Source: a virus
Length of the DNA: 64,000 nt
Virus record (IMG/VR): IMGVR_UViG_3300023174_000057
Coordinates: 1 to 64,000 of that record
Strand: one strand, 5' to 3'
Part shown: in pieces, positions 3,157-63,526 of the stretch
Layout: each line of letters begins with the position of its first letter
How positions within the stretch are numbered: the first letter of the stretch is position 1
Notes under the pieces: model-generated
Seen by the model: only the letters and a program-made list of their open reading frames with translations
Database searches by the model: none
Told to the model about the DNA's origin: nothing
Made by a program: the position numbers and the translations under genes

Positions 3157-3429
3157 ATGGAAGCGACGTGCGGCGTCAAGTACAGGCTCACGAACGGCAC
3201 TCTCGACCTCGTGCGGGTGGTGAGCCCCACGGGTCGTGGGGTCACCGTCCGTGGTGGTGGCATCCCTGCCACGGTCGCCCGGAAGGTGCTGGGGTCGGGT
3301 GCGAAGCTCTTCGACACCCGGGTGGACCTGTGCGGCACCCGTGTGTACGAGCTCGATTGGTACGAGGGCACCATGTCTCTCACCTACGGGGAGATGCGGG
3401 CGGTGTTGGTGGCGGCGGGGTGTTGGTGA
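3157..3429 (+). CDS. hypothetical protein
   Basis: Behind the class I motif; first gene of a coupled operon. Confidence 0.65.
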   Translation: MEATCGVKYRLTNGTLDLVRVVSPTGRGVTVRGGGIPATVARKVLGSGAKLFDTRVDLCGTRVYELDWYEGTMSLTYGEMRAVLVAAGCW

Positions 3430-3569
3430 TGGTAGTGGTCCGTGGGGGTTCCTACCGCTACCGCTACGGGGTGATGGTTCGGGCGGCGAAGGTTTGCAAG
3501 GAGCCTCCCGAGTCGCTCGACCGGGAGCCCGGGTTCCGCACCCGCCTACCTGTGAGGCAACCGAGATGA
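3429..3569 (+). CDS. FGE/CLec C-terminal-segment mini-protein 1 (46 aa)
   Basis: MVVVRGGSYRYRYGVMVRAAK...PGFRTRLPVRQPR; TGATG overlap with the upstream gene. Confidence 0.7.
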   Translation: MVVVRGGSYRYRYGVMVRAAKVCKEPPESLDREPGFRTRLPVRQPR

Positions 3570-3736
3570 CCAAGAACGGCAACGAGTCACCGATCTTGGG
3601 CGTTCGCGGCGGCAACTGGGACAACGACCGTGGGTTCTATGTGCGGGTGTCGTTGGAGGAGATTCAGTTTGGCTCCCAGCTTCGGGGCACGGACACGGGT
3701 TTCCGCACCTCCCTCTCTGCGAGGCAACCGAGATGA
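3566..3736 (+). CDS. FGE/CLec C-terminal-segment mini-protein 2 (56 aa)
   Basis: VRGGNWDN...TGFRTSLSARQPR; ATGA overlap. Confidence 0.75.
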   Translation: MTKNGNESPILGVRGGNWDNDRGFYVRVSLEEIQFGSQLRGTDTGFRTSLSARQPR

Positions 3737-3888
3737 ACACCCCGTACTTCCGCATCCGAGGGGGATGCTTGATCACCCGCGATCCGTGGTGGGTTCGCCC
3801 TGCGCTCGACACCCCACAGAAGGCTGACGTGAACATCAACAGTCTCGGGTTCCGCACCCATCTCCCTGCAAGGATGCCCCGCGTATGA
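3733..3888 (+). CDS. FGE/CLec C-terminal-segment mini-protein 3 (51 aa; not in ORF track)
   Basis: MNTPYFRIRGGCLITRDPWWVRPALDTPQKADVNINSLGFRTHLPARMPRV; ATGA overlap. Confidence 0.75.
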   Translation: MNTPYFRIRGGCLITRDPWWVRPALDTPQKADVNINSLGFRTHLPARMPRV

Positions 3889-4058
3889 GCGCCACCAAAC
3901 TTCGAGAAGAATCCCACCTTGTTCTTCATGGGGGTTCTTGGAACCGCACGGGTACCCGCACCTTGCGTGCCGACTTCCAAGGTGGGGAGCGACCCGCGCA
4001 TTTCGACGACTGTCTGGGGTTCCGCACGATGCTGCCGGGGCGTAAGGCACGGACATGA
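3885..4058 (+). CDS. FGE/CLec C-terminal-segment mini-protein 4 (57 aa; not in ORF track)
   Basis: MSATKLREESHLVLHGGSWNRTGTRTLRADFQGGERPAHFDDCLGFRTMLPGRKART; ATGA overlaps on both sides. Confidence 0.75.
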   Translation: MSATKLREESHLVLHGGSWNRTGTRTLRADFQGGERPAHFDDCLGFRTMLPGRKART

Positions 4059-4591
4059 AGCTCATCGTCTTGGAAGGCTGCGACGGCACGGGCACGAGCA
4101 CCAACGCGAAGAAGTTGGGGGAGGCCCTCCAGCGCGAGGGCTACAAGACCCTCGTCTACCACCACCCCCCGCACCGTCCGGGTGGGGGTGACTGGGAGCG
4201 GTCCCTGCACTACGCGAGGGAGAGGGCCGAGATGGCCACCCGCACGGCGGACGACACGGTGGTGGTGGCGGACCGCTGGGTGTCCAGCACGGATGCGATT
4301 GCCATGACCCTCGACGGCGAGGTTCGTGGGAGGCTGCTGGGTCTCACTGCACTGGAGAGGCAGTCTCTCCCGACCCCCACGCTCATCGTCCTGCTCGACG
4401 CCCCCGACGCGGTGCTGGACGAGAGGCTCACGGCCCGTGGCGAGTCTCCCCCTCCGCAACGAGGTGAGCTTCGTCGGGTGTACCGGGAGAGCATCACCAT
4501 GACGTGCGACGTGACGGTGAACACGGCGGGAGATAGCGGTCGGGTGTCTGACCGTCTGTTGTCCTTGGCCAAGGCTGCACTGGAGGACTGA
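4055..4591 (+). CDS. tmk: thymidylate kinase-like protein
   Basis: IVLEGCDGTGTST P-loop (Lys replaced by Thr), VVADRW and LLDAP motifs. Confidence 0.8.
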   Translation: MKLIVLEGCDGTGTSTNAKKLGEALQREGYKTLVYHHPPHRPGGGDWERSLHYARERAEMATRTADDTVVVADRWVSSTDAIAMTLDGEVRGRLLGLTALERQSLPTPTLIVLLDAPDAVLDERLTARGESPPPQRGELRRVYRESITMTCDVTVNTAGDSGRVSDRLLSLAKAALED

Positions 4592-4592
4592 C

Positions 4593-4877
4593 ATGAGCAA
4601 GGGTCTACCGAGGGTCTGGAAGGCGACGGTCACCTACGAGGTGTACGTTCTCTCACACCGCGCCGACGAAGCAGCGGACTGCGCCAAGCTGAACCGGGAC
4701 TGCTACGCGGACATCGAGCACACGGGGGTGTCCAGCGCCGTGGTGGTGACGGACATCGGGTCCGTGGAAGACCCGACGAGTCTCCCGTGGGTGGCGATGG
4801 ACGTGAAGAACCCCGACCACAGGGAAGACATCACCGTGCGCGAGTGGCTGGAGCGCATCAAGGGAGAAGAGAAGTGA
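4593..4877 (+). CDS. hypothetical protein (paralog of next gene)
   Basis: VYV...LPWV...DITVREW pattern shared with 4874-5209. Confidence 0.65.
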   Translation: MSKGLPRVWKATVTYEVYVLSHRADEAADCAKLNRDCYADIEHTGVSSAVVVTDIGSVEDPTSLPWVAMDVKNPDHREDITVREWLERIKGEEK

Positions 4878-5209
4878 GCGAACCGAAGCTGTACCGGGTG
4901 AGAATCGAAGCCGACGTGTACGTCGTCGCGGCCAGCGAGCACGACGCCGAGGAGTACGCCCTGCGGGAGAGTGACGTGGTGGACGACGCGATGGAGCACG
5001 CCGAAGCCACGGCTTCCGTCGTCACGGCGAAGAGTCTGAGCGGCGCGGAGGAGAACTGCCTCCCGTGGGTGGACGACGACTTGGAAGACGGCGAGGTTGA
5101 CCGGGACCGCACGGTGAAGGCGTGGGCGGAACTGAACGACGCCGCCACGGCCCAAGCCAAGCGCGAGCGTGAGTTCAACGCCAAGCAACTGAACATCCCG
5201 GGGACGTGA
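4874..5209 (+). CDS. hypothetical protein (paralog of previous gene)
   Basis: GTGA-coupled; VYV...LPWV...DRTVKAW. Confidence 0.65.
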   Translation: MSEPKLYRVRIEADVYVVAASEHDAEEYALRESDVVDDAMEHAEATASVVTAKSLSGAEENCLPWVDDDLEDGEVDRDRTVKAWAELNDAATAQAKREREFNAKQLNIPGT

Positions 5210-5424
5210 TGCGAACCTACCACATTCGCATGATGGACGACTACGGGTGGACCTTGGGGAAGGTATCCCCCGACGCGCCCAACAACAGCGCCGTTCTCAC
5301 CGTCGAGCGCGACGGCACCCGCTGGATCAGCCAAGTCAACGTGGACCGCCTGTCCATCGCAGACCTTTCCTCCCTCGCGGAGTTCTGCGCGCACGCGAAG
5401 CTCGACACTGGGCGCGGGACGTGA
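5206..5424 (+). CDS. hypothetical protein
   Basis: Coupled ORF. Confidence 0.55.
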   Translation: MMRTYHIRMMDDYGWTLGKVSPDAPNNSAVLTVERDGTRWISQVNVDRLSIADLSSLAEFCAHAKLDTGRGT

Positions 5425-5654
5425 CCGTGGCCGTGACCGTAGAAGACCTCCGAACGCTGATCGGGGACGTGCTGTTCCAACGGGGTTATGGTTCGTGGTC
5501 CTTCGACCCGTACACGCGGGATCACGAACCCGGTTGGCACTACGTCCAAGTGGACGCCCGTTCCTACGACGTTCGTAGGCTGACGGTCAACGAGCGGGGT
5601 CGTACGGAAGCCGAAGCCTTGCGGGGTGTACTGGACTCCCTTGGAGTACCGTGA
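5421..5654 (+). CDS. hypothetical protein
   Basis: GTGA-coupled ORF. Confidence 0.55.
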   Translation: MTVAVTVEDLRTLIGDVLFQRGYGSWSFDPYTRDHEPGWHYVQVDARSYDVRRLTVNERGRTEAEALRGVLDSLGVP

Positions 5655-5913
5655 ACCTAGATCAAGCCCGAGCTCTGACCGCACGGTTCCCCGCCTATTC
5701 CCCGCCCCCCGTAGCGGGCTCCCGGTAGCGGTGGTTTCTGCCGCTTCCCACCGCGCACCGTCCCCTGAAGCCGAGCGGCGACAGGGGGGTGGGCTGGGAG
5801 CCCGCCGCCGACAAGGCTGACCTCCGGGCGTTGATGGATCGGATGTTCCCGCCCCGCTAGTATCCCTGTTGACGCCCGTACTCGACGAGTGAGCCCACAC
5901 CCGGAGCTAAACG

Positions 5914-7122
5914 ATGCCCCACGATCCCTTCCAAACCCCCGATCTCAACGACGTTCACCGCCGCATCCTCGACGCGGTGGGGTTCAAGGTACCGGCGTCG
6001 GCCAACCTCGACGATGCCCGCGATGCGCTGGAGGACCACTACCTCGCGATGAAGCGGGGGCCGGAACGGGACCGTTTTGAGACGGCCTTCACGCTGATGA
6101 TATACGGAGACGTGGTGGACGGAAAACCCGAGAGTCAAACCCAATCGAAGATCCGAGCACTGGAGCAGTCGGGGAAGACGGCTCACTCACGGAGACAAGA
6201 GATGAAGAAGAAGTCCAGCGAGCGCGGTGCCGGGTCTGACGGCAACTACATGACCAAGCAGAACTTGTGGCTGCTGCACCGGATGACGGAGCTCCTGTAC
6301 AAGGGCATCCCGGACGGTGTGCTCCTGCCTGATTGGGCTGAGTCCAAGATCAACAGCGCCGCCGACCACATCAAAGCCGTGGCGGGCTGGGCGATGCACG
6401 AGTCCCACGGGGATGACCTCCACCCCGCCCCGGAGGAGAACCCGATCCACCTCGGTGACCGGCACCTCCGTGCGGGCCTCATCCGTCTGGCTCACGCCAA
6501 CCCAGAACTTCGTCCGCACCTCCTCCCCCTTCTCACCAAGGTGGCAGCGGAGGAGGTGAACGTCCCCGGCAAGCACATCCTCGACAATGCCACGGTGTAT
6601 GGCGAGGCCGAGGTGTCAGGCGGTGCCAAGGTGTATGACGACGCCAAGGTGCGGGGCGGTGCCAAGGTGTCTGGCACTGCCGAGGTGAAGAACAACGCCG
6701 AGGTGTTGGGTAATGCCAAGGTGTCAGGCACCGCCCATGTGTATGGCAACGCCAAGGTGTTTCACAAATCAAAGGTGTATGGCGGTGGCCGTGTGTTTGG
6801 CTATGCCAAGGTGGGAGACTTGGCCGAGGTGTATGGCGAGGCCGAGGTGTATGGCACCGCCGAGGTGTATGGCACCGCCAAGGTGTATGAGGATGCCAAG
6901 GTGTATGGCACCGCCGAGGTGTATGATGGTGCCGAGGTGTATGGCACCGCCGATGTGTTTGGCGCTGCCAAGGTGTATGGCACCGCCAAGGTGTATGGCA
7001 CCGCACAGGTGTATGGCGAGGCCGAAATCAGTGGGACCGCAATCATCACGGGCGGTGAGTGGGACGGGTCGGAAGGCCCGATCACCAAAGGTAAGTGGAA
7101 GTCTCCCGGCGTTCCCGCCTGA
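5914..7122 (+). CDS. composite protein: N-terminal domain, internal LRxxLIRLAH tag, hexapeptide-repeat left-handed beta-helix
   Basis: Tag at about 6466-6546, then about 25 VYG(T/N/E)A(K/E)-type repeats (6583-7050). Confidence 0.8.
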   Translation: MPHDPFQTPDLNDVHRRILDAVGFKVPASANLDDARDALEDHYLAMKRGPERDRFETAFTLMIYGDVVDGKPESQTQSKIRALEQSGKTAHSRRQEMKKKSSERGAGSDGNYMTKQNLWLLHRMTELLYKGIPDGVLLPDWAESKINSAADHIKAVAGWAMHESHGDDLHPAPEENPIHLGDRHLRAGLIRLAHANPELRPHLLPLLTKVAAEEVNVPGKHILDNATVYGEAEVSGGAKVYDDAKVRGGAKVSGTAEVKNNAEVLGNAKVSGTAHVYGNAKVFHKSKVYGGGRVFGYAKVGDLAEVYGEAEVYGTAEVYGTAKVYEDAKVYGTAEVYDGAEVYGTADVFGAAKVYGTAKVYGTAQVYGEAEISGTAIITGGEWDGSEGPITKGKWKSPGVPA

Positions 7123-7178: not shown

Positions 7179-7451
7179 ATGTCCAGTAATCTCCGTGCGG
7201 GCCTCATCCGTCTGGCTCACGCCAATCCAGAACTTCGTCCGCACCTCCTCCCGCTGCTCAAGGAAGCTGCGAAGGCTCCGGTCAAAATGGAGGCCCGCCT
7301 CATCCAGATCAATGACCGTGTGAAGGACTTTGATGGGTCTTTCCGTGTGGTCAAGACCGTCGAGGTCACCAAAGACTTGGTGAAGGTGACTTTCAAGGAC
7401 GGTGGACGGATCAACGCTGACCCCAACGACATGGTGACCGTTCAGCGATGA
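7179..7451 (+). CDS. tag-bearing small beta-rich (SH3-like) protein
   Basis: MSSNLRAGLIRLAHANPELRPHLLPLLKEAA N-terminus. Confidence 0.8.
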   Translation: MSSNLRAGLIRLAHANPELRPHLLPLLKEAAKAPVKMEARLIQINDRVKDFDGSFRVVKTVEVTKDLVKVTFKDGGRINADPNDMVTVQR

Positions 7452-9021: not shown

Positions 9022-9059
9022 ACGGAGGCGGGGTCGGGGCTGTAACCGAGAATCGTCAC
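9022..9059 (-). repeat. 38-nt direct repeat containing the class I promoter; partner at 10409-10446
   Basis: 37/38 identity; the pair flanks the FGE scaffold plus mini-gene module. Confidence 0.85.
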
Positions 9060-9229
9060 CGGGTTTGTCTTACCGGGAGGGCGCACCGAAAACCGAGGCC
9101 GTAGCTACGGTCCGCAGGCCCGTACGCGTAGCGAGACGCGGCGCGCACCCACGACGGTACGCTGTCGTTCCAACCGCCGCCGCGGTAGACGCGGAGACGG
9201 GTGTCCGTGGGCTTGGTGGTGGGGTTCAC
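9056..9229 (-). CDS. FGE/CLec C-terminal-segment mini-protein 7 (57 aa)
   Basis: RVYRGGGWNDSVPSWVRAASRYAYGPADRSYGLGFRCALPVRQTR; GTGA overlap. Confidence 0.8.
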   Translation of the reverse strand: MNPTTKPTDTRLRVYRGGGWNDSVPSWVRAASRYAYGPADRSYGLGFRCALPVRQTR

Positions 9230-9393
9230 GTTCGGGGTTCCCTTCCCCGCAACGCGCACCGAAACCCCAAGGCGCTGCCACGGTAAGCAGGCACGAGCGC
9301 GTTGCGAGACGCGGCGCGCACCCACGACGGTCCGCTGAAGTTCCAACAGCCGCCGCGAAAGACGGTGTCGGCGGGCTTGGTAGGGGGCTTCAT
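9226..9393 (-). CDS. FGE/CLec C-terminal-segment mini-protein 6 (55 aa)
   Basis: VFRGGCWNFSGPSWVRAASRNALVPAYRGSALGFRCALRGREPRT; ATGA overlap. Confidence 0.8.
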   Translation of the reverse strand: MKPPTKPADTVFRGGCWNFSGPSWVRAASRNALVPAYRGSALGFRCALRGREPRT

Positions 9394-9566
9394 ACTCGGG
9401 GTTCCCTTACTGACAGGTGGGTGCGAAAACTCATGTTGGTTTCGCGCCACTCGGGCTCGTACGAGCCCCGGTTGTCGGGCCGCATGAACGGGGCGTAGGA
9501 GAGTCCCCAACCGCCGCCCACCAGTACGCGGGGGAGGTTGGGGTCCGGGGGCTGTGCCCGTCTCAC
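9390..9566 (-). CDS. FGE/CLec C-terminal-segment mini-protein 5 (58 aa)
   Basis: GTG start overlaps the scaffold TAG (TAGTG); RVLVGGGW...MSFRTHLSVREPRV. Confidence 0.7.
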   Translation of the reverse strand: MRRAQPPDPNLPRVLVGGGWGLSYAPFMRPDNRGSYEPEWRETNMSFRTHLSVREPRV

Positions 9567-10387
9567 TAGTGGACGGTGCTGGTCCACTCCCAGACGTTGC
9601 CGCTCATGTCGAGCAGCCCGTAGGGGGAGGCACCCTTGGGGCGGGCGGGGGTGCCGTCCGGGTTGAAGCACGGCGCGGTGCGCTCCTTCTGGGAGTGAAT
9701 GCTCGACCAGCAGAGCTCATCCTTGGGGGCGTCGTTGCCCCACGGAAACTTGCGCCCGTCGTTGCCGCGCGCGGCGCGCTCCCACTGTTCCTCCGTGGGG
9801 AGGCCCACCCCCGCCCACTTGGCGAACTCACGGGCGTCCCAGTAGGACACCTCGACCACCGGGTGGTCGCTCAGGTCCACCGTCGCGCCCGACTTGTCCG
9901 TGACGGTGGTGGGCTTGAGCTCCTTGCCCATGTCCGTGGCGTACCAGTTCCACTGGCGCACGGTCGTGGGCGTGAGGGCCATGAAGCCCGCTTCGACGTT
10001 GACCGCCTTTCGGGACTGCGACTCGTCGTCGCCCATCGTGAACCCCACCGCTGCCTCGACGTAGCAGAGGGGCAGGGTGTTCCCATCGGGCAGCACATGG
10101 TTGACGACCCACGTCCCGCCGACCTCGCGGTTGGTGGGCCATTCCAGCACCACCTCGCCCGCTTCGATGCGGGGGCGCGGCACCACCCCGTAGACGGGGT
10201 GGTAGTGGAAGCTCCACACCTCCGTCGCCGTGAGCACCCGGAGGGCGGTGATTCCCTCCGGGAGGTTGAGGGTGGTCACCACCCCGACGACCTCGTCGGG
10301 GTGGTCGCTCTTGGGGAGGGGGTTGCTGGGCTCGTAGTCGAGCCAGCCCCCGCGCTCCCCCTCGCAAAAGCACACTTGGATCTTCAT
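9566..10387 (-). CDS. FGE-sulfatase (SUMF1/CLec-fold) domain protein lacking its C-terminal segment
   Basis: FTMG, HPVVEVSYWDA, LPTEEQWERAARG, FPWG, YGLLDMSGNVWEW, then stop after five residues. Confidence 0.9.
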   Translation of the reverse strand: MKIQVCFCEGERGGWLDYEPSNPLPKSDHPDEVVGVVTTLNLPEGITALRVLTATEVWSFHYHPVYGVVPRPRIEAGEVVLEWPTNREVGGTWVVNHVLPDGNTLPLCYVEAAVGFTMGDDESQSRKAVNVEAGFMALTPTTVRQWNWYATDMGKELKPTTVTDKSGATVDLSDHPVVEVSYWDAREFAKWAGVGLPTEEQWERAARGNDGRKFPWGNDAPKDELCWSSIHSQKERTAPCFNPDGTPARPKGASPYGLLDMSGNVWEWTSTVH

Positions 10388-10513
10388 ACCTCACTCCTTA
10401 CGCCCCCAACGGAGACGGGGTCGGGGCTGTAACCGAGAATCGTCACGAAAAGATTCGACCCCAAGAAGTTTGATTCTTGGTTACGAACGGTGGACGCTCT
10501 CCGTGGTGTGGGC

Positions 10514-15803: not shown

Positions 15804-16163
15804 AGCGACCTACGTTCCAAAATCATTCGGCTGGCTCACCAGCAGCCGCATCTCCGTCCGCAGCTTCTCCCTCTCCTCAAGGCGGCGGGCAATCTGGGCG
15901 AAGAGCTCAACCCGTACCTTCTGGAGTTCGACAAAGTGCCCGCGTCCGAGGAGGACATGGAAGAGGCCCAAGAGAACCTCGACAACGCGAGCAACGACCT
16001 CCAAGGGATCGTGGAGGACACGTCGCGAAATGTCGCGGCCTTGGTAAAGAAGGCCCTTCGGGAGAGCGGCAAGTTCAACAAGTTCTTCAGCGGGGGGAGC
16101 GCCGAACTGTTCCACGACGATCTCGTCGCTTCGGTGATCTCGGCGGTCCACAACGCCAAGTGA
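15801..16163 (+). CDS. tag-bearing acidic helical protein
   Basis: MSDLRSKIIRLAHQQPHLRPQLLPLLKAAG. Confidence 0.8.
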   Translation: MSDLRSKIIRLAHQQPHLRPQLLPLLKAAGNLGEELNPYLLEFDKVPASEEDMEEAQENLDNASNDLQGIVEDTSRNVAALVKKALRESGKFNKFFSGGSAELFHDDLVASVISAVHNAK

Positions 16164-16193: not shown

Positions 16194-17555
16194 ATGGACT
16201 TCCTCCGTTCCCGCGTCATCCGGCTCGCTCATCAGAACCCCGCTCTCCGTCCGCACCTCCTGCCTCTGCTTGCTTCGGGCGTAAGGGCTGTCATGGCAGG
16301 GAACCATGTCGAGCTCACAGAGGCCAACGGGATGGTGTACGTCACGGGGCCGTACCACCTCATGGCCGAGAACGTGAACCCGCGACTGAAGTCGCAGGGG
16401 TTCCGTTGGGACGGCGGCGCGCGTCGGTGGGAGCTCCCCGCCGCCAAGCTCACGCCCATCAAGCGCAAGAACTTGATGAAGATCATCGAGCCCCTCACGG
16501 CTGCGGGGGCGGCATCCACGGGCACGGATCTCCGTTCTCCCAAGCAGAAGATCGAAGACGAGATGCTGCGTCGGCGCGTGGAGGGGTGGTGCATCGACCT
16601 CCCCTACGACCTTGGGGAGAAGGCCAAGTCTCTGGGGGGTCTGTGGAACCCCACCACCCGGCTCTGGTGTATGCCCGACAAGGCGGCGCTGGATACCCTC
16701 CGCGAGGCCATCAACCAGACGCCCAAGATGGTGGCGCTGCGGGAGATCGCGCGGCGCAAGGCCGAGCGTCTGGGGGTGAACATCCCCTACGAGTACAAAG
16801 ACGAAGCCAAGTCTCTGGGGGGCCTCTGGGATCAGGACACCCGCACTTGGTATATGCCCGACACGTCCACCAAGCAGAAAGTGCTCGACAAGGTCGAGGC
16901 CGACCAAGAGCAAGCCCGACAGGTGGCGCTCCGTCACATGGAGCAGGAGCGGGAGCGGGTCGAAGCCGAGAGGAAGCGTCTGGGCCTCAAGACCTACTAC
17001 GAGCCGGGATACTCGCGTGGCGACCACCCGGCTGTCGGCCAGACCTTCAAGGATCGGAAGACGGGCGAGTTCATGGTAGTGACCGACGTGAAGTCGGTGT
17101 TCTATCGGGAGGACGGTCTGTCCTTCGGGCTTCCCGACGACACGGGATGGATGCACACGATCACGGCCAAGCCCGCCGAGGACGAGACGGCCATCCAAAG
17201 CATCAAGGACCGGGAGCAGCAGGAGCTCACCGTGGCCCAAGCCCGCACTCGTCGCAAGGAGCTCGCCAAGATGTTCCGCGACCGTGGGGACTTTCCGACG
17301 ACCGAAACGGACCTCCGACGTGAGGACCGTCTGGTGCTCTCTGGCCGGAACTCCGTCGCCTACGGCGGCGGGGATTGGTTCGTGATCACCCCGTCCCACA
17401 TCTGGTTCGTTCAGAACAACGGCGGGGACGGCGACAACTGGGGGTCGAACAACGTCGTCACGGGTGGCGCGGGCGCGATGGGCTGGAGGATGCCCCGCAC
17501 GGATGAACTGGTGGGCGAGCTCCAGCAACTCGACACCCTCATCGGTGAACGCTAG
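16194..17555 (+). CDS. tag-bearing protein with DUF5710-like repeats
   Basis: MDFLRSRVIRLAHQNPALRPHLLPLL; two (L/I)PYxxxxxAKSLGGLWxxxTRxWxMP repeats. Confidence 0.8.
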   Translation: MDFLRSRVIRLAHQNPALRPHLLPLLASGVRAVMAGNHVELTEANGMVYVTGPYHLMAENVNPRLKSQGFRWDGGARRWELPAAKLTPIKRKNLMKIIEPLTAAGAASTGTDLRSPKQKIEDEMLRRRVEGWCIDLPYDLGEKAKSLGGLWNPTTRLWCMPDKAALDTLREAINQTPKMVALREIARRKAERLGVNIPYEYKDEAKSLGGLWDQDTRTWYMPDTSTKQKVLDKVEADQEQARQVALRHMEQERERVEAERKRLGLKTYYEPGYSRGDHPAVGQTFKDRKTGEFMVVTDVKSVFYREDGLSFGLPDDTGWMHTITAKPAEDETAIQSIKDREQQELTVAQARTRRKELAKMFRDRGDFPTTETDLRREDRLVLSGRNSVAYGGGDWFVITPSHIWFVQNNGGDGDNWGSNNVVTGGAGAMGWRMPRTDELVGELQQLDTLIGER

Positions 17556-19080: not shown

Positions 19081-20001
19081 ATGAGCACCCTGCGATCCTC
19101 CCTCATTCGGCTGGCTCACCAGCAGCCGCATCTCCGTCCGCAGCTTCTCCCTCTCCTCAAGGCGGCGCGCGTCACCCAAGAACTCATCCGGGTGAAGTAC
19201 GTCAACCTTGGGGACTTCGGCGGGACCGACCCCGTGGAAGACTCTTGGGTGCTGGATGTCGCTGGGCCGACGTTCGACTACCGTGACGAGCTCAAGCGTC
19301 TGGGCTTCCGTTGGAACTCAGCCAGCAAGGTTTGGAGCATCGACGCGACGCTGTACAAGTACGGCGGGCGGCGCAACGCGGAGTTCTACAAGAACCGCAA
19401 GCTCCAAGAAGCTGCCTTCCCGGTGGTGCAAACCCTCGCCAAGAAGCACAACGAGGCGGCAGAGGCGTTCAACCGTGGGGTCCGTCCCGGTGGTGGCGGT
19501 GGTGGCGGTGACGACCGCGAGGTCGTCGAGCACTGGCAGCGGCTTGAACGGATGCAGCCCAAGCTGGAGGCGGCGGGGCTCAAGGTCGAGCACACCTACC
19601 CCGGTCGCTACGACGTGACCGAGGGCACAGTGACCGTGAGCGGCAACACCTACCCGTTCGTCGCGGTCATGAAGAAGTACGGGTGGAAGTGGAACCCGTC
19701 GAAGAAGGCGTGGCAGATCCCGGTTCCCGAGTACCACGCGATCCAAGACAAGTGGATGAGTGACATCGTGCGGGAGCTCCCGAGTCGTCCCGAGCCCGTG
19801 GTGTCCGCCGTGTTCTCGGAGATGAGCCAGCGTGAGCTCGCGGACTGGGTGGGCAGTCACTACGGCTACGAAGACCTCACGCAAGACGGCGAGCAGGACG
19901 CGAAGGTGGGGATCGCCCGCTACATGGCCTACCTCAAGGGCTTGAGCCCGAAGGACCAGCAGAGCTTCTACGAGAAGCAAAACCGCCTCTACGGGCGCTG
20001 A
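19081..20001 (+). CDS. tag-bearing protein with two GxxWnxxxKxW modules
   Basis: MSTLRSSLIRLAHQQPHLRPQLLPLLKAAR; LGFRWNSASKVW and YGWKWNPSKKAW. Confidence 0.8.
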   Translation: MSTLRSSLIRLAHQQPHLRPQLLPLLKAARVTQELIRVKYVNLGDFGGTDPVEDSWVLDVAGPTFDYRDELKRLGFRWNSASKVWSIDATLYKYGGRRNAEFYKNRKLQEAAFPVVQTLAKKHNEAAEAFNRGVRPGGGGGGGDDREVVEHWQRLERMQPKLEAAGLKVEHTYPGRYDVTEGTVTVSGNTYPFVAVMKKYGWKWNPSKKAWQIPVPEYHAIQDKWMSDIVRELPSRPEPVVSAVFSEMSQRELADWVGSHYGYEDLTQDGEQDAKVGIARYMAYLKGLSPKDQQSFYEKQNRLYGR

Positions 20002-20014
20002 AGGAGCTCCTCCC

Positions 20015-20833
20015 GTGAACCTGCGATCCAAGGTCATCCGCCTCGCCCATGCCCAGCCCGGTCTCCGTCCTCTCCTCCTGCCCCTCCTCAAGACGGCGGG
20101 GGACGTGATCCCGTTCGCGGGTCGCGCTCCTCGCAACTCGCACACGGTGACCCTCGCGGGTGACAAGTACGTCCTGTCCACCCATTCGGGCGGGATGATG
20201 GGCGACCTCATGGAGCTCCCCGAGGAAGCCGAGGAAGGGGCGCGCATCATCCACGTTCGTCCCGAGGACCCGTGGAAGTACCTCTGGGCCTACGACACGG
20301 ACCATCAAGTTCTGGCCATGTGGCGGGTGTCGGACGGGAACGAAAAGGAGTACGGGTCTGCTAGGTCACAGACGGCGCTGTTGGTGAAGCTCGACAAGAA
20401 GGGCGAGCTCAACCGGGTGACGGGTGCCCAGTTCCGATCCATCGAGACGGCGATGCGCGCCCAAGACGAAGCCCACACACGGTCGCTGGAGCAGTGGGTC
20501 GAGGAGACCAAGACCACCTCCCAGCGGGACGTGGACGCCCTCGTGCGGGAGTACTTCGACACGAAGGTCCGCCCCGCGATGGACCGTGCCGTCCGTGACG
20601 TTGAGCAGGGTGTGATCCCGCTGGGCTTCAAGGCCAACCCCGGTGGTTTTCCGGTCGATAGGCAGATGAAGTCCTACGTCACGGGGAAGCTGTACGAGAA
20701 GCTCCTCGACCTCGACGTGATCGACGCCTACGTCCGGTCGCAGGGCGTGGACCTCGACGCGATTGACAGCCAAGCAACCCAGTGGGCGCGGGACGACGTG
20801 TGGTTCGACTACCTCAAGTCCGTCCTGCGCTGA
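20015..20833 (+). CDS. tag-bearing hypothetical protein
   Basis: MNLRSKVIRLAHAQPGLRPLLLPLLKTAG. Confidence 0.8.
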   Translation: MNLRSKVIRLAHAQPGLRPLLLPLLKTAGDVIPFAGRAPRNSHTVTLAGDKYVLSTHSGGMMGDLMELPEEAEEGARIIHVRPEDPWKYLWAYDTDHQVLAMWRVSDGNEKEYGSARSQTALLVKLDKKGELNRVTGAQFRSIETAMRAQDEAHTRSLEQWVEETKTTSQRDVDALVREYFDTKVRPAMDRAVRDVEQGVIPLGFKANPGGFPVDRQMKSYVTGKLYEKLLDLDVIDAYVRSQGVDLDAIDSQATQWARDDVWFDYLKSVLR

Positions 20834-20848
20834 TAAGAAACCCAACAC

Positions 20849-21130
20849 ATGAGCACTCTTCGTTCCAAGGTCATCCGGCTCGCGCACCAGCGTCCAGAGT
20901 TCCGCCCCCACCTTCTCCCTCTCCTGAAGGAAGCGGCTATGCCCCCTGCGGACCGAAAGAAGAAGGTTGCCGAGATTTTCAAGAGGTTCAAAGGGATCGG
21001 TGATGGGATGGTCCGTGGCGGGAAGCACAAGATCATGCTCGCCGTCGAGGGTTACAACACCGTAGTGCTGGAAGACGCCACCGACGAGGAGATCGACCGC
21101 ATTTACGCGAAGTACATCCTCAAACTCTGA
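20849..21130 (+). CDS. tag-bearing small protein
   Basis: MSTLRSKVIRLAHQRPEFRPHLLPLLKEAA. Confidence 0.8.
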   Translation: MSTLRSKVIRLAHQRPEFRPHLLPLLKEAAMPPADRKKKVAEIFKRFKGIGDGMVRGGKHKIMLAVEGYNTVVLEDATDEEIDRIYAKYILKL

Positions 21131-34972: not shown

Positions 34973-35146
34973 TCATCGCGGTTCCCTTCCCCGCAACGCG
35001 CACCGAAACCCCAAGTCGCCGCCACGGCTCGCAGGCACGCCCGAGTCGCGAGACGCGGCACGCACCCACGACGGCTCGCTGTGGTACCAACTGCCGCCGC
35101 TAACGACGCGGAGACGGTTGTTGGAGGGCTTGAAGGGGGGGTTCAT
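34973..35146 (-). CDS. FGE/CLec C-terminal-segment mini-protein 9 (57 aa)
   Basis: RVVSGGSWYHSEPSWVRAASRDSGVPASRGGDLGFRCALRGREPR; ATGA overlap. Confidence 0.8.
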   Translation of the reverse strand: MNPPFKPSNNRLRVVSGGSWYHSEPSWVRAASRDSGVPASRGGDLGFRCALRGREPR

Positions 35147-35304
35147 ACTCGGGGTTGCCTTACTGGCAGGTGGGTACGGAACCCCAGACTGCCGCCCCGG
35201 ATCGCAGGCCCGCGCGCGTCGCGAGACGCGACGGGCACCCAAGACGGTCCGCCGCTGTACCAAGACCCGCCACGAATCACGCGAAGCCGGTTGCCGATCC
35301 TCAC
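35143..35304 (-). CDS. FGE/CLec C-terminal-segment mini-protein 8 (53 aa)
   Basis: RVIRGGSWYSGGPSWVPVASRDARGPAIRGGSLGFRTHLPVRQPRV; GTGA overlap. Confidence 0.8.
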   Translation of the reverse strand: MRIGNRLRVIRGGSWYSGGPSWVPVASRDARGPAIRGGSLGFRTHLPVRQPRV

Positions 35305-36400: not shown

Positions 36401-37699
36401 ATGAACCGTCTGGCATCGTTGTACAAGCTCGGGATGGCCCTCCGGGCCTACCGCATGATCAAGCAAGCGGGAGCGAACGATGACGCTCTGGCTCGGGCGC
36501 AGTTCTTGGAGGGGGTGCTCGGCAAGCCCTTCAACAGCGTGTCTGGGCGGGGTAGCCCCATGTCGGCCATCTCCAAGCTCCTGATGGAGCTCTATGGCGA
36601 CCCGACGATGGACGTGAGCTCGTCCCCGTGGATGGCCCGCAACACCAGCACCTACGACAACATCGTCCGTGGCCTCGACTCGATGGTGCGCGGCAAGGGC
36701 GGCAAGACAGGCGAGGAGATCCTCCAAGAGGACCTCCTTCGGGGCCTCTCGGGGAAGGGCAACGTCTTCTACCGGGCGGGGCAGCAGTTCTCCCCGGACA
36801 GCATCAAGGCCGACCCCGACAGCGCCCTCGCGGACATGAAGGGCCGATCCTCGGCCTACGCCAAGAAGATGGCCATCGACGTGATCCGCTCGGAAAAGAG
36901 CCGCGACAAGAGAGAAGAGGGCTTCGGGGCTCCCGGTCACGAAGAGGACTCCTCGGAGCTCGTGCTCACGCTGGGTCGGGTCGAGGCGCTCGCCATCGAC
37001 GACCCCAACGGAGCTTTCGGACGCGGCTTCCACGAGTGGATCAACAGCATCGCGGACAAGGTCCTCACGCCCGAAATGAGCGGGCGCGTGAAGGGCTACA
37101 TCGATCTGAAGATGGAGGGGAGCAACATCTCCGACTCCGCTTACGCGGAGCAGATCGGTGTCATCCGCGAGTCCTTCGCGCGGGCCAAGAAGGTCTGGAG
37201 CGAAGCTGTAGAGAAGTCCTTCAACCAAGCCGCTTCGTCGGGTCGGTTCCCCAAGTTCATCGAAGACGCCCAGAACGCCGTCGCTCTGGCCAACGAGTTC
37301 CGCAGAAAGGCAGCAAGGAAGATCATGGCACGCAACCTCACCGCAGCGGAGCGAGACCTTCGCTCCAAGGTCATTCGTCTCGCCCACCAGAACCCCAGCC
37401 TCCGTCCGCACCTCCTCCCGCTCCTCAAGCAAGCCGACGCAGAGCCCTCGGCGGAACAGATGGCGAGCGAGATCATGGCGGGCCGTCCGTGGGGCGGCGA
37501 CAACTACAAGCCCAAGGCCAAGGACTACGACGATCCCGCGCCGGGTCCGGGCTCGCCGCCCTGCCAGCCCGATGGCGAGGGCGGGTGCTACGAGCACACG
37601 GATATGTACAAGGGCTACGGCAGCACCAACTCGGGCTCCAACGGCTCGGCGGCGCGTCGCGAGTACAACAAGAAGTACCGCAAGATGATGGGTCTGTGA
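36401..37699 (+). CDS. hypothetical protein with internal tag (possible internal start 37325)
   Basis: DLRSKVIRLAHQNPSLRPHLLPLLKQA at about 37355-37435; AAGGAAG before ATG 37325. Confidence 0.75.
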   Translation: MNRLASLYKLGMALRAYRMIKQAGANDDALARAQFLEGVLGKPFNSVSGRGSPMSAISKLLMELYGDPTMDVSSSPWMARNTSTYDNIVRGLDSMVRGKGGKTGEEILQEDLLRGLSGKGNVFYRAGQQFSPDSIKADPDSALADMKGRSSAYAKKMAIDVIRSEKSRDKREEGFGAPGHEEDSSELVLTLGRVEALAIDDPNGAFGRGFHEWINSIADKVLTPEMSGRVKGYIDLKMEGSNISDSAYAEQIGVIRESFARAKKVWSEAVEKSFNQAASSGRFPKFIEDAQNAVALANEFRRKAARKIMARNLTAAERDLRSKVIRLAHQNPSLRPHLLPLLKQADAEPSAEQMASEIMAGRPWGGDNYKPKAKDYDDPAPGPGSPPCQPDGEGGCYEHTDMYKGYGSTNSGSNGSAARREYNKKYRKMMGL

Positions 37700-43795: not shown

Positions 43796-43906
43796 CCCCC
43801 GTTTGCCCTTTGATATCCGACCCGATGTACCCCCAGCGGGGGGGTCGGGGCGTCCACCCATCTTTTCCCCGACAACAACGCCTTGAGACGAGTGAGGAGT
43901 CAACTC

Positions 43907-46891
43907 ATGCTCGACGGGAGCCCTTTCCCCAATCTTCTGAGTGAGTTCGTGTACACGCGCACCTACGCGCGCTGGTTGGAGGACGCCAAGCGCCGCGAAT
44001 CGTGGCCCGAGACCGTCCTTCGTTACGTTGACTACATCTTCAAGGACAAGACCGTGCCGCACGGGCTCCGGGAGCGGGTCGAGAAGTTGATCCTCAACTT
44101 CGACGTGCTGGGTTCGATGCGGGCGTTGTGGTGCGCGGGTCCCGCGATGGACCGCGACAACGTGTGCGGGTACAACTGCTCGTCCCTGCCCGTGGACAAC
44201 CTCCGGGCGTTCAGCGAGGCCCTCTACATCCTCATGCAGGGCACGGGCGTGGGTTTCAGCGTCGAGCGCACGTTCACCGACAACCTCCCGGAGATCGCCC
44301 AACCCACGGGCGACACCATCGACTACATCATCCAAGACAGCACCGAAGGCTGGGCCGATGCCGTGTACTTCGGGATGGTGCAGTACCACCTCGGGCACCG
44401 GGTCAACTGGAACTACTCGCTCATCCGGGCGAAGGGTGAACGCCTCCACACCAAGGGTGGGCGGGCCAGCGGGCCGGAACCCCTCAAGCGAGTGCTGGAT
44501 TTCGCTGGAGAGACCATCGCCAACGCGGCGGGCCGTCGCCTGAAGCCCATCGAGGCGCACGACATCATGTGCATGATCGCGGAGATCGTGATGGTGGGCG
44601 GGTTCCGCCGCGCCAGCCTGATCTCCTTCAGCGACGTGGACGACGCGGAGATGCGCGACGCCAAGGACTGGTCGAAGGGGACGTTCCCGTCGATTCGGTA
44701 CATGGCGAACAACAGCGCCGTGTACTTCGACCGCCCCACGGAGGAGGTGTTCTGGCGCGAGTGGAACTCCCTCGCCAAGTCGGGCTCGGGCGAGCGGGGT
44801 TTCTACATCGTCAGTCCCCAGAACGTCGTCAAGCGCGGCGGCGAGTTTCGCAGTAATCCCTGCGTCACCGGGGACACCCGCGTGATGACCGACCGTGGCA
44901 TGGTCCAGATCCGTGACCTCGTCGGCAAGCCCTCCAAGCTCCTGCTCGACCAGCGGTTCGGCACGGACGGTTTCGGCCACACCACGGAAGCCGGGGCGTT
45001 CAAGACGGGCACGAAGGAAGTTTTCCGCCTCACCACGGAGGAGGGGTACACCCTGCGCCTCACGGCAGACCACCGTGTGATGACATCTCGCGGGTGGGTC
45101 GAGGCTCGTCACCTCACCCCCGCCGACCGGGTTCACGTCATCAACCACGGCGGTGGTTTCGGCACCAAGGGGGATGAGAACCTCGGGATGCTGGCCGGGT
45201 GGTTGTCGGGCGACGGCTGCGTGCTGGAGAACGGTGTCCCCCGCTTCTACTTCTACGGCGAGAAGCGTGAGCTCACGGCTCGCATGGCCGTGGCAGCGCA
45301 AGCCGTCACCGGGGGTGCGCTCCCGATGTTCCACACCTACCTCCCGATTGACCGTGACACCTTCCAGAGCGCGGACCTCCGCGAGTACCTCGGGGGGATG
45401 GCCAAGGGCCGGGTGCCGGAATTCGTCTGGCAGGGCACCAAGGACTGCCAGCGCGGTTACCTCTCGGCCCTGTTCAGTGCCGATGGGTCTGTGCAGGGAA
45501 CCCGTGAGAAGGGGGCCTCGGTGCGTCTGTCGTCGGTGGAGGCAGACCTCCTCCGCGACGTGCAGATGCTCCTGCTCAATTTCGGCGTAGCGTCGAAGCT
45601 CTACTTGAACCGACACGAGGCGGGCACCCGCCTACTGCCCGATGGCAATGGTGGTCTGGCTCCGTACCCGTGCCAAGCGGATCACGAGCTCGTGGTGAGC
45701 AAGGCCAACCTCGTCGCGTTCCACCGCAACGTAGGCTTCATGCTGGCCTCCAAGGAGGCCAAGCTGACTGCGCTCGTCGATGGGTTCGTTCGTGGCCCCT
45801 ACGCCGAAAAGTTCACCGCTCGGGTATCCACCATCGAGTCCTGCGGCGTCGAGGACGTGTACGACCTCACGGAGCCGACGACGCACTCGTTCGTGGCGAA
45901 CGGCGTGGTGGTCCACAACTGCGGCGAGATCCTCCTGCGCTTCAAGCGGGCGACCGACCCGTGGACGGGCGCGGGCGGCGGTGGGCAGTTCTGCAACCTC
46001 ACGGCGGCGGTGATGCGCCCGCACGACACCCTTGAAACGATGGCCGAGAAGGTTCACGCGGCGACGTGGCTGGGGGTGATTCAGTCCTCTTACACGCACT
46101 TCCCCTACCTTCGCCCCGCGTGGAAGGAGCTTTGCGACGAGGACCGCCTCGTGGGCGTGGACATCACGGGCCAGTGCGACAACCCGGCGCTCTCGGGCGA
46201 CGAGGAAGCGATGACGTACCTCAATGCCCTCGCACGTTCGACGGCGATCATCGCGGCGGCAACCCTCAAGGTTAACCGCCCTGCGGCGATCACCTGCGGC
46301 AAGCCCAGCGGGAACTCGTCGCAGTTCGTGGACTGCGCCAGCGGGTTTCACACCCGCTACGCGAAGCACTACTTCCGGCACGTTCGGATTTCTTCCAAGG
46401 ACCCGTTGTTCCACCTCGTGCGGGACCAAGGCGTACCCCTCTTCAAAGAGAACGGGCAGGAGCACTTGGAGGACGACAAGGTGGACGTGTGGGTGGCGCG
46501 GTTCCCGGTGAAGAGCCCCGATGGTGCGAAGCTCCGCGAGCACGAGCGGGCGCTTCAGCAGTTGGAGCGGTACCGCCAGATCATGCGGACGTGGTGCGGT
46601 GACAAGGGTCACAACCAGAGCGCGACCGTGTACGTCCGGGACGAAGAGTGGCAGGAAGTCGGTCAATGGCTCTGGGAGCACTTCGACGAGGTGACCGGGC
46701 TGTCGTTCCTGAACTACGACGGGGGCGCGTACCGCCTCGCCCCCTACGTCGAGATCACGGAGGAGGAGTACCTCGCCGCCCAGAAGGTGATGCCGCGCGT
46801 GCGGTTCGACCTGCTGCGTCGGTACGAAACGGGCGACATGGGCGACGGTGCCCGTGAAGCCGCGTGCGTGGGTGGGGCGTGCGACGTTTGA
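43907..46891 (+). CDS. nrdJ: class II (B12-dependent) ribonucleotide reductase containing an intein
   Basis: YTRTYAR, GYNC, GTGVGFSV, NP|CGEI, TCGKPSGNSS, C-terminal ACVGGACDV. Confidence 0.92.
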   Translation: MLDGSPFPNLLSEFVYTRTYARWLEDAKRRESWPETVLRYVDYIFKDKTVPHGLRERVEKLILNFDVLGSMRALWCAGPAMDRDNVCGYNCSSLPVDNLRAFSEALYILMQGTGVGFSVERTFTDNLPEIAQPTGDTIDYIIQDSTEGWADAVYFGMVQYHLGHRVNWNYSLIRAKGERLHTKGGRASGPEPLKRVLDFAGETIANAAGRRLKPIEAHDIMCMIAEIVMVGGFRRASLISFSDVDDAEMRDAKDWSKGTFPSIRYMANNSAVYFDRPTEEVFWREWNSLAKSGSGERGFYIVSPQNVVKRGGEFRSNPCVTGDTRVMTDRGMVQIRDLVGKPSKLLLDQRFGTDGFGHTTEAGAFKTGTKEVFRLTTEEGYTLRLTADHRVMTSRGWVEARHLTPADRVHVINHGGGFGTKGDENLGMLAGWLSGDGCVLENGVPRFYFYGEKRELTARMAVAAQAVTGGALPMFHTYLPIDRDTFQSADLREYLGGMAKGRVPEFVWQGTKDCQRGYLSALFSADGSVQGTREKGASVRLSSVEADLLRDVQMLLLNFGVASKLYLNRHEAGTRLLPDGNGGLAPYPCQADHELVVSKANLVAFHRNVGFMLASKEAKLTALVDGFVRGPYAEKFTARVSTIESCGVEDVYDLTEPTTHSFVANGVVVHNCGEILLRFKRATDPWTGAGGGGQFCNLTAAVMRPHDTLETMAEKVHAATWLGVIQSSYTHFPYLRPAWKELCDEDRLVGVDITGQCDNPALSGDEEAMTYLNALARSTAIIAAATLKVNRPAAITCGKPSGNSSQFVDCASGFHTRYAKHYFRHVRISSKDPLFHLVRDQGVPLFKENGQEHLEDDKVDVWVARFPVKSPDGAKLREHERALQQLERYRQIMRTWCGDKGHNQSATVYVRDEEWQEVGQWLWEHFDEVTGLSFLNYDGGAYRLAPYVEITEEEYLAAQKVMPRVRFDLLRRYETGDMGDGAREAACVGGACDV
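44861..45919 (+). mobile_element. intein with LAGLIDADG homing endonuclease
   Basis: Begins CVTGDT after SNP, ends VVHN before CGEI; LAGWLSGDG and LSALFSADG motifs. Confidence 0.92.
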
Positions 46892-62902: not shown

Positions 62903-63526
62903 ATGGACACCCTGCGATCCAAGGTAATCCGGTTGGCCCACGAGAACCCAGAACTACGTCCTCACCTTCTCCCTCTTCTCAAGACGGCCAGTAGATCCTT
63001 GGATCAACTGCGGGCGGACTTGGAAAAGGTGAGTCAGGTTTCGTTCGCTCGGAACGTGCAAAACAATCGCCGCTACACCCCGGAGCAGAAGGCGAAGGCG
63101 GTGGAGAAGGCCGATGCCATTCTTCAGTCCGGGGAGGTGGACTACCTCCTCAAGATTTCCAACCGTGATACGGACCGCTTGACGGACATCTTGACCTTGA
63201 TCCGTTCGGGGGGGCCGAGGATCGGCACGGCGCATAGCAAGGCTGAAGATGACGCCGAGCGATACGTCCGCGAATTGGAGTTCTTGTCCAAGTTCAGCAC
63301 CCTTCCCGAGATGGTCCCCGTGGACCGTCAATTGATGACGGGCAAGTTCCACACGCGGGATTTCGGGGGTCTGGATACGCTGGCTCAACGGATTCAGTCG
63401 GTCAACACCGAGAATCAACTCAGCCGCGAAGATTCCGAGAGGCTCTTGGCCGAATGGCGTTCCCGCACCTTCGGTCCCGACAGGGGCAGCGACCCCCTCA
63501 ATTTCGGGGATCGTTACCGGGATTGA
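62903..63526 (+). CDS. tag-bearing hypothetical protein inserted among replication genes
   Basis: MDTLRSKVIRLAHENPELRPHLLPLLKTAS; CTAT 18 nt upstream. Confidence 0.8.
   Translation: MDTLRSKVIRLAHENPELRPHLLPLLKTASRSLDQLRADLEKVSQVSFARNVQNNRRYTPEQKAKAVEKADAILQSGEVDYLLKISNRDTDRLTDILTLIRSGGPRIGTAHSKAEDDAERYVRELEFLSKFSTLPEMVPVDRQLMTGKFHTRDFGGLDTLAQRIQSVNTENQLSREDSERLLAEWRSRTFGPDRGSDPLNFGDRYRD

Follow-up and report, generated by a model that had tools for sequence, protein, structure and literature searches.

The DNA analyzed here (the window; 64,000 nucleotides) represents bases 1-64,000 of a 166,764-base IMG/VR record, referred to as G000, with a GC content of 64.5%. Central to the locus is a scaffold gene on the minus strand (positions 9566-10387), encoding a protein of 273 aa that matches PF03781 over positions 14-192 of 255. 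The N-terminal domain of this protein is β-rich, spans ~100 aa and is of unknown family—a search of the ESM Atlas with the first 95 residues gave no usable match. The C-terminal part corresponds to the first three quarters of an FGE-sulfatase/C-type-lectin (CLec) domain and ends five residues past a GNVWEW motif. The gene, present in a single copy in the contig, does not encode a complete CLec domain with a 3' variable repeat; instead, the scaffold stops before a set of separate repeat ORFs of 46-68 aa, here termed mini-genes. These cover PF03781 positions ~196-254 of 255, i.e., the C-terminal quarter absent from the scaffold, and a whole-domain match is achieved only by scaffold and peptide jointly. 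The mini-genes supply the C-terminal part that the scaffold lacks, and we therefore take them to encode the second of two chains into which the domain is split. An earlier note on this DNA had described them as targets reduced to the variable region, which captures their nature as variable regions but misses this complementary role.

A profile search of the contig recovered 16 mini-genes in four arrays, nine of them within the window, with a gap (E = 1e-16 to 0.05) separating them from the next match. The four named in the earlier note, with coordinates and minus-strand orientation given correctly, are all real but form only part of this inventory. On the plus strand, an array at 3429-4058 consists of four old, diverged units: a1 (3429-3569; 46 aa; HMM E = 6e-18), a2 (3566-3736; 56 aa; E = 5e-19), a3 (3733-3888; 51 aa; E = 2e-21) and a4 (3885-4058; 57 aa; E = 2e-23). 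Next to the scaffold, the minus-strand array at 9056-9566 holds three: the old unit b0 (9390-9566; 58 aa), whose GTG start overlaps the scaffold stop codon, and the young units b1 (9226-9393; 55 aa) and b2 (9056-9229; 57 aa). Two more occupy 34973-35304, also on the minus strand—the young c2 (34973-35146; 57 aa) and c1 (35143-35304; 53 aa), of intermediate age—and seven lie beyond the window, at G000 65318-66556; the core of one of these, d2 (G000:65664-65834), is identical to that of b1. Two of the arrays are thus located 25-56 kb away from the scaffold. The mini-genes have their own starts, with purine-rich, RBS-like sites upstream of most, and are mostly linked through overlapping stop and start codons; most of these ORFs were missed by gene callers. 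GGxW and GFR motifs and open frames persist in old units after template identity has been lost, which suggests selection on the peptides, with the caveat that profile detection favors such units. The leader of d6 carries a Lys-Pro repeat expansion (G000:66350-66410; L002:1492-1550), and short repeats vary the leaders of several units.

The premature end of the scaffold is a conserved trait. In 47 of the first 48 homologs, the protein stops 5-12 residues past the WEW motif, the remaining one being a fragment, and two more truncated homologs were found beyond that set (~49 truncated in total). A pseudogene or an assembly error at the scaffold stop was rejected, as the same end recurs in three other assemblies and in these ~49 homologs, among which no fused scaffold-peptide phage form was found (lengths of 150-478 aa were searched). 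Arrays accompany the scaffold in related contigs as well, one stretch holding as many as 13 units and 10 kb of a 392-kb contig holding 21. In one relative (L149, 5568-10834), the genes adjoining the scaffold encode an AAA_5 ATPase and a CobT/vWA protein, which recalls MoxR-vWA conflict modules. In L009 (10001-10300), another phage FGE gene ends 11 residues past WEW beside a full-length paralog, with no mini-genes found in that 60-kb record.

From a structural perspective, the AF2 model of the scaffold reached a pLDDT of 92.6, and a Foldseek search with it returned FGE-fold proteins only, TvpA among them. When scaffold residues 85-273 were modeled together with peptide b2, the complex scored 0.90 (best control, 0.02), with a contact agreement of at least 91% and a partner pLDDT of at least 76; of 80 solved pairs, 58 passed the mark applied to such complexes, as did 2 of 110 mismatched ones. 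Model confidence for the scaffold itself was 87-91 with the peptide and 43-48 with unrelated partners. The complex model indicates a predicted fit, not binding, and the halves of a split domain may pass through memory of solved full-length FGE folds.

The window derives from a jumbo-phage fragment (167 kb, 39% complete). CheckV estimated the completeness of G000 at 39%, which implies a genome size of ~430 kb, and relatives of this phage were found on contigs of 272, 350 and 392 kb. Matches to PHROG families (major head, portal, UvsX-like recombinase, clamp loaders, GroEL and sigma factors) identify G000 as a large tailed phage. The scaffold and the mini-genes lie among small accessory genes, a sigma factor and a SET protein. 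A motif scan placed a repeated element of the GGTTAC-N14-17-CCGTGG type at 10396-10446 (minus strand), preceding the scaffold operon; this element occurs at 16 sites in the contig, just upstream of the start codons of mostly small accessory genes, over window positions 1276-36353 and concentrated in the first 37 kb. We infer that it is probably a phage promoter. Several further features of the contig were recorded. A coding repeat of 70 nt (roughly LRSKVIRLAHQNPxLRPHLLPLL) recurs nine times, at or close to the beginning or end of several genes (6466-6535, 7191-7260, 15810-15879, 16203-16272, 19090-19159, 20021-20090, 20858-20927, 37358-37427 and 62912-62981), perhaps encoding a shared targeting or packaging peptide. 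A coding tandem repeat with an 18-nt period spans 6533-7072 within the ORF at 5914-7122. A ribonucleotide reductase with a LAGLIDADG intein is encoded at 43883-46891; the contig holds three intein-bearing proteins altogether and also encodes an actin-like (Volactin) protein and a type IB topoisomerase domain.

A bacterial template for the mini-genes

The earlier note had inferred adenine mutagenesis from codon alignments of the copies at 9056-9229, 9226-9393 and 34973-35146. Every codon triple it listed is correct, and 18 of the 23 variable columns in these three copies do fall at codon positions 1-2, as it had claimed. Across seven distinct young copies in the contig, A occurs in 0/63 invariant core columns and in 27/36 variable columns. 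A degenerate pattern built from the invariant positions and run against 185,579 species genomes matched a single one, an uncultured deltaproteobacterial MAG of 8.1 Mb. The matching template (113 nt) lies directly behind a gene for a 378-aa reverse transcriptase (RT; PF00078) with a YMDD motif, and both fragments of the template predicted in the earlier note (54 and 21 nt) occur in it letter for letter. The predicted association of template and DGR RT was therefore borne out, but in a bacterial genome rather than in the phage contig. Adenines fall at codon positions 1-2 in 25 of 26 cases, and the template can encode ~10^14.9 peptides with no stop codon possible. The MAG also holds Avd, a second template start and full-length targets, including a caspase-FGE fusion; only two targets of the 113-nt template were found in it. 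Named relatives of the RT belong to Polyangiales, Polyangiaceae and Sandaracinaceae, in cellular contexts beside TIR-kinase-FGE or kinase-FGE targets. The host of the jumbo phage is probably a Polyangiales-like myxobacterium, a putative link based on the template match alone, without CRISPR or infection evidence.

Comparison with this template upheld the mutagenesis claim, since most mismatches of the three young window copies coincide with template adenines. The copy b2 differs at 15/26 A sites and 1/87 non-A sites (Fisher p = 6e-11), b1 at 18/26 and 5/87 (p = 1e-10), and c2 at 18/26 and 4/87 (p = 2e-11); across young phage units overall, the ranges are 11-18/26 adenines and 1-7/87 other bases. 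One unit of a related contig has no non-A mismatch at all, and the phage family displays 17 distinct adenine patterns with at most four non-A mismatches to the template. The old unit b0, in turn, has 34/87 non-A mismatches. The copy at 35143-35304 (c1), said in the earlier note to fit mostly the same pattern, is indeed A-biased (19/26), but 17/87 non-A sites have changed too (p = 9e-7); it is older or, in part, of another source. Neutral paralog drift was rejected as an explanation, given that the invariant columns lack any A and mismatches follow template adenines. Generic likeness to any DGR template was likewise rejected: three other related bacterial templates gave 20-29 non-A mismatches with the five young units tested, against 1-5 for young copies with the matching template, so the match is specific. 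Moreover, units of one related phage match two different bacterial templates, with 1 and 5-6 non-A mismatches, respectively.

Young units hardly vary over the final 14 bases of the template match, which also agree with the host targets. A constant, IMH-like segment is therefore present 3' of the mutable zone, although its function as an IMH is only inferred. A target-recognition hairpin common to host and phage targets was not evident: a short stem-loop lies 3' of b1, and no structure is common to c2, d5 or the host targets. Several units share three further template bases 5' of the point at which the host targets stop matching, a weak observation.

The phage records themselves yielded no DGR machinery. 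The absence of an RT and a template from the window, stated in the earlier note, extends to the full 166,764-base contig, in which an AAC-rich scan and a full-length sliding match found no template. Pfam, protein and custom profile searches detected no RT or Avd in G000 and four related phage records. These records are, however, mostly fragments (G000, G001, G002 and G065 are 13-39% complete), and the 272-, 350- and 392-kb relatives were outside the search; missing machinery in fragmentary records is not proof of its absence from the genome. Among 2.9 million IMG/VR viral contigs, the nearest RT was 44-45% identical and neither the template core nor the pattern was present. A metagenome scan, finally, recovered mutated units alone, with no template.

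Strain comparison and a second phage lineage

Four assemblies of the G000 phage have identical arrays where they overlap. The picture differs between strains: in two sister strains, neighboring genes are 99.6-99.9% identical (1/729 and 2/474 bases differ), and c2 differs from its sister-strain ortholog at 18/26 adenine sites and 6/87 others, and d1 at 17/26 and 8/87. One sister strain has three units where G000 has six, and one (L192) carries a different core behind an unchanged 5' flank of c1. The copy d6 is common to G000 and a sister strain. The arrays thus change fast between strains but not within a population consensus, a pattern that fits episodic rewriting combined with duplication and conversion. 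Given the identity of the four assemblies in their arrays and the occurrence of d6 in a sister strain too, rewriting is at most episodic. The differences between sister strains could also have arisen if existing units underwent gene conversion with one another.

An unrelated phage of 99 kb (IMGVR_UViG_3300013132_000033, L013; 90% complete, 30% GC) shows the same architecture, with a truncated scaffold followed by at least 11 mini-genes at L013:9800-12100. Its scaffold, which bears a 38-aa tail of its own, is truncated also in the nine closest homologs, and its nearest named full-length relatives are from Bacteroidota. Young mini-gene cores in this phage have 56-71% GC and are flanked by sequence of ~19% GC, with older cores grading down to 25%; only 0.24% of windows in this genome reach 55% GC. 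GC-rich cores in an AT-rich phage are the pattern expected if a GC-rich foreign template had been written in and then ameliorated. Searches of this 90%-complete genome revealed neither an RT nor Avd nor a template. Together with the related phage whose units match two templates, this lineage matters more than the absence of machinery from the fragmentary records.

Interpretation and competing explanations

The split, its conservation and the adenine-specific derivation of the young mini-genes from a bacterial DGR template are established. The reading that we favor, with somewhat more confidence than doubt, is that DGRs of the host act in trans for the phage and diversify its repertoire of two-chain binders, with function, expression, ligands and retrohoming being inferred. 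A binder of the FGE-subtype CLec class would have its two chains encoded separately: the scaffold would be constant, and the mini-proteins of 46-68 aa, encoded in an array, would supply core strands and the entire variable binding surface. Upon infection of a host with an active DGR, cDNA produced by the host RT, Avd and template would take the place of a mini-gene core in the phage, by retrohoming in trans. Units would then be multiplied and shuffled by tandem duplication and gene conversion, with old units left to drift, and each peptide would fold into the shared scaffold—giving at least 16 simultaneous binding specificities per phage. As to where the binders act, an intracellular role early in infection, against host proteins such as host CLec-bearing conflict systems rather than in tail fibers, is favored because the operon lies among small accessory genes behind a promoter-like motif and because the donor DGRs diversify sensors resembling conflict systems. 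This is the least certain part of the reading, and we hold it only tentatively, at a little under even chances; a surface or virion role is not excluded.

The most direct challenge to a host source is that the phage owns a DGR (RT, Avd and template), derived from a Polyangiales-like host and located in the unassembled 60% of its genome, in which case the mini-genes would be ordinary non-adjacent targets and only the split would be new. The low completeness of the four records (G000, G001, G002 and G065) leaves room for this possibility, and phage DGRs with non-adjacent targets within 50 kb are known (PMC5758913). We nevertheless regard it as unlikely, given the lack of a close RT or template in IMG/VR, the observation that for none of the 120 best RT homologs does the longest contig equal one of the long phage contigs, the match of units to more than one bacterial template, and the second phage, 90% complete, devoid of machinery and with cores of foreign base composition. 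Alternatively, the phage might not be a retrohoming target: variable regions that were already mutated might have been taken up from host target genes, or from free cDNA, by homologous recombination of the phage and kept as mini-genes. The end product would look alike; the phage encodes a UvsX-like recombinase, the arrays are static across four assemblies and no shared target hairpin is evident. Against such capture, just two targets of the template were found in the host MAG, compared with dozens of distinct adenine patterns in the phage family (17 of them near-perfect), and the three extra template bases beyond the match limit of the host targets speak weakly in the same direction; we judge capture improbable, to much the same extent as a phage-owned DGR.

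Other explanations dispense with the two-chain binder. The peptides alone could swap into the C-terminus of host CLec sensors (caspase-, TIR- or kinase-FGE) as dominant negatives, or the arrays could titrate host DGR cDNA. It is true that the peptides reproduce the variable segment of the host itself, that a distance of 25-56 kb separates two arrays from the scaffold, and that the host targets are conflict-system-like fusions (PMC10907252). Yet such a decoy or sponge would leave unexplained a truncated scaffold that is conserved in both phage lineages, usually beside an array, that lacks core strands and whose model confidence falls from 87-91 to 43-48 with unrelated partners; old units also keep frames and GGxW/GFR motifs that a DNA sponge would not need, detection bias acknowledged. 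We consider this explanation very unlikely. Slimmer still is the prospect that the units are silent cassettes, joined to the scaffold by DNA rearrangement into an expression site, or partners in ribosomal frameshifting from the scaffold into the first unit, so that a full-length protein is made. In its favor, the start of b0 lies within the stop codon of the scaffold, in the -1 frame, which is open upstream. However, no fused scaffold was found among the ~49 homologs, the spacing and frame of the junction vary among relatives, a terminator-like hairpin separates scaffold from array in L013 and L147, units occur upstream of the scaffold too, and units have starts of their own, most with RBS-like sites.

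A broader version of the reading based on host DGRs in trans is that phages without DGR machinery routinely parasitize host DGRs, and that a two-chain receptor displaying many specificities at once evolved at least twice as an antibody-like counter to the DGR-diversified immune sensors of their hosts. We see the arguments for and against this generalization as evenly balanced.

Relation to known systems and further candidates

TvpA of Treponema denticola, an FGE-subtype CLec protein (PDB 2Y3C), is the prototype of a remote-target DGR. The phage mini-genes resemble TvpA-type remote targets in fold family, in having a C-terminal variable region with adenine-specific mismatches, in the existence of several dispersed targets per template and in the placement of adenines in the matching template (25/26 at codon positions 1-2). 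They work like a remote target of this kind but do not amount to a complete DGR, because they fall short of whole domains and searches of their replicon detected no machinery. Remote targets known so far comprise whole domains and share a genome with the RT, whereas the mini-genes number at least 16, encode only a peptide and need a separate scaffold—with the targets on a virus and the template in a bacterium. The DGR of Bordetella phage BPP-1 (mtd-avd-TR-brt) and other tail-fiber DGRs are different: no RT, Avd or template was found on the mini-gene phage, and the target is not a single tail-fiber gene but has small accessory genes as neighbors. The DGR-diversified CLec sensors of multicellular bacteria are akin to the donor DGRs described here, which are of that type and have caspase-FGE, TIR-kinase-FGE and kinase-FGE targets; unlike the phage units, such sensors are cellular, full-length and served by their own RT.

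Published surveys provide a partial frame for these observations. According to PMC5758913, DGR components act in trans within a cell, phage DGRs are expected to lack remote targets, the number of targets is at most seven or eight, and targets down to 44 aa are described as folds alone. The RT-anchored method of PMC8144416 misses remote targets, by its own account, and no domains of the FGE/CLec family appear for the 224 jumbo phages reviewed in PMC7824862. In the passages of PMC10907252 and PMC7159879 that were searched, neither a split domain nor phage use of a template is described. More generally, we found no description of a split CLec domain accompanied by peptide arrays, or of a phage that exploits a host template, in the literature (subscription papers not covered). 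If the preferred reading holds, the system would exemplify a virus that diversifies its own genes through the DGR of its host. Targets of this sort are invisible to RT-anchored surveys, and their ORFs are mostly skipped by gene callers. The CLec fold would be naturally splittable at the boundary of the variable region, thereby offering a ready-made scaffold for peptide display with ~10^15 encodable peptides and no stop codon. Additionally, such a match to a template serves to predict which host an uncultured jumbo phage has, and the peptide ligands, once found, would give a handle on the role of cellular DGRs in multicellular bacteria.

Other viral records contain related arrangements. In two phages of 37-38% GC (L203 and L204, ~4500-4650), full-length FGE genes have 69-71% GC in their last 96 bases and are possibly whole-domain targets of a host DGR. 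Viral contigs of ~60% GC (L209-L212, ~3500-5700) carry several short ORFs ending in the FGE C-terminal segment beside longer FGE genes, a possible third mini-gene lineage. Lastly, a frequent viral or proviral family (L010-L085, many IMG/VR contigs) displays runs of short, full-length FGE paralogs with diverse C-terminal segments.
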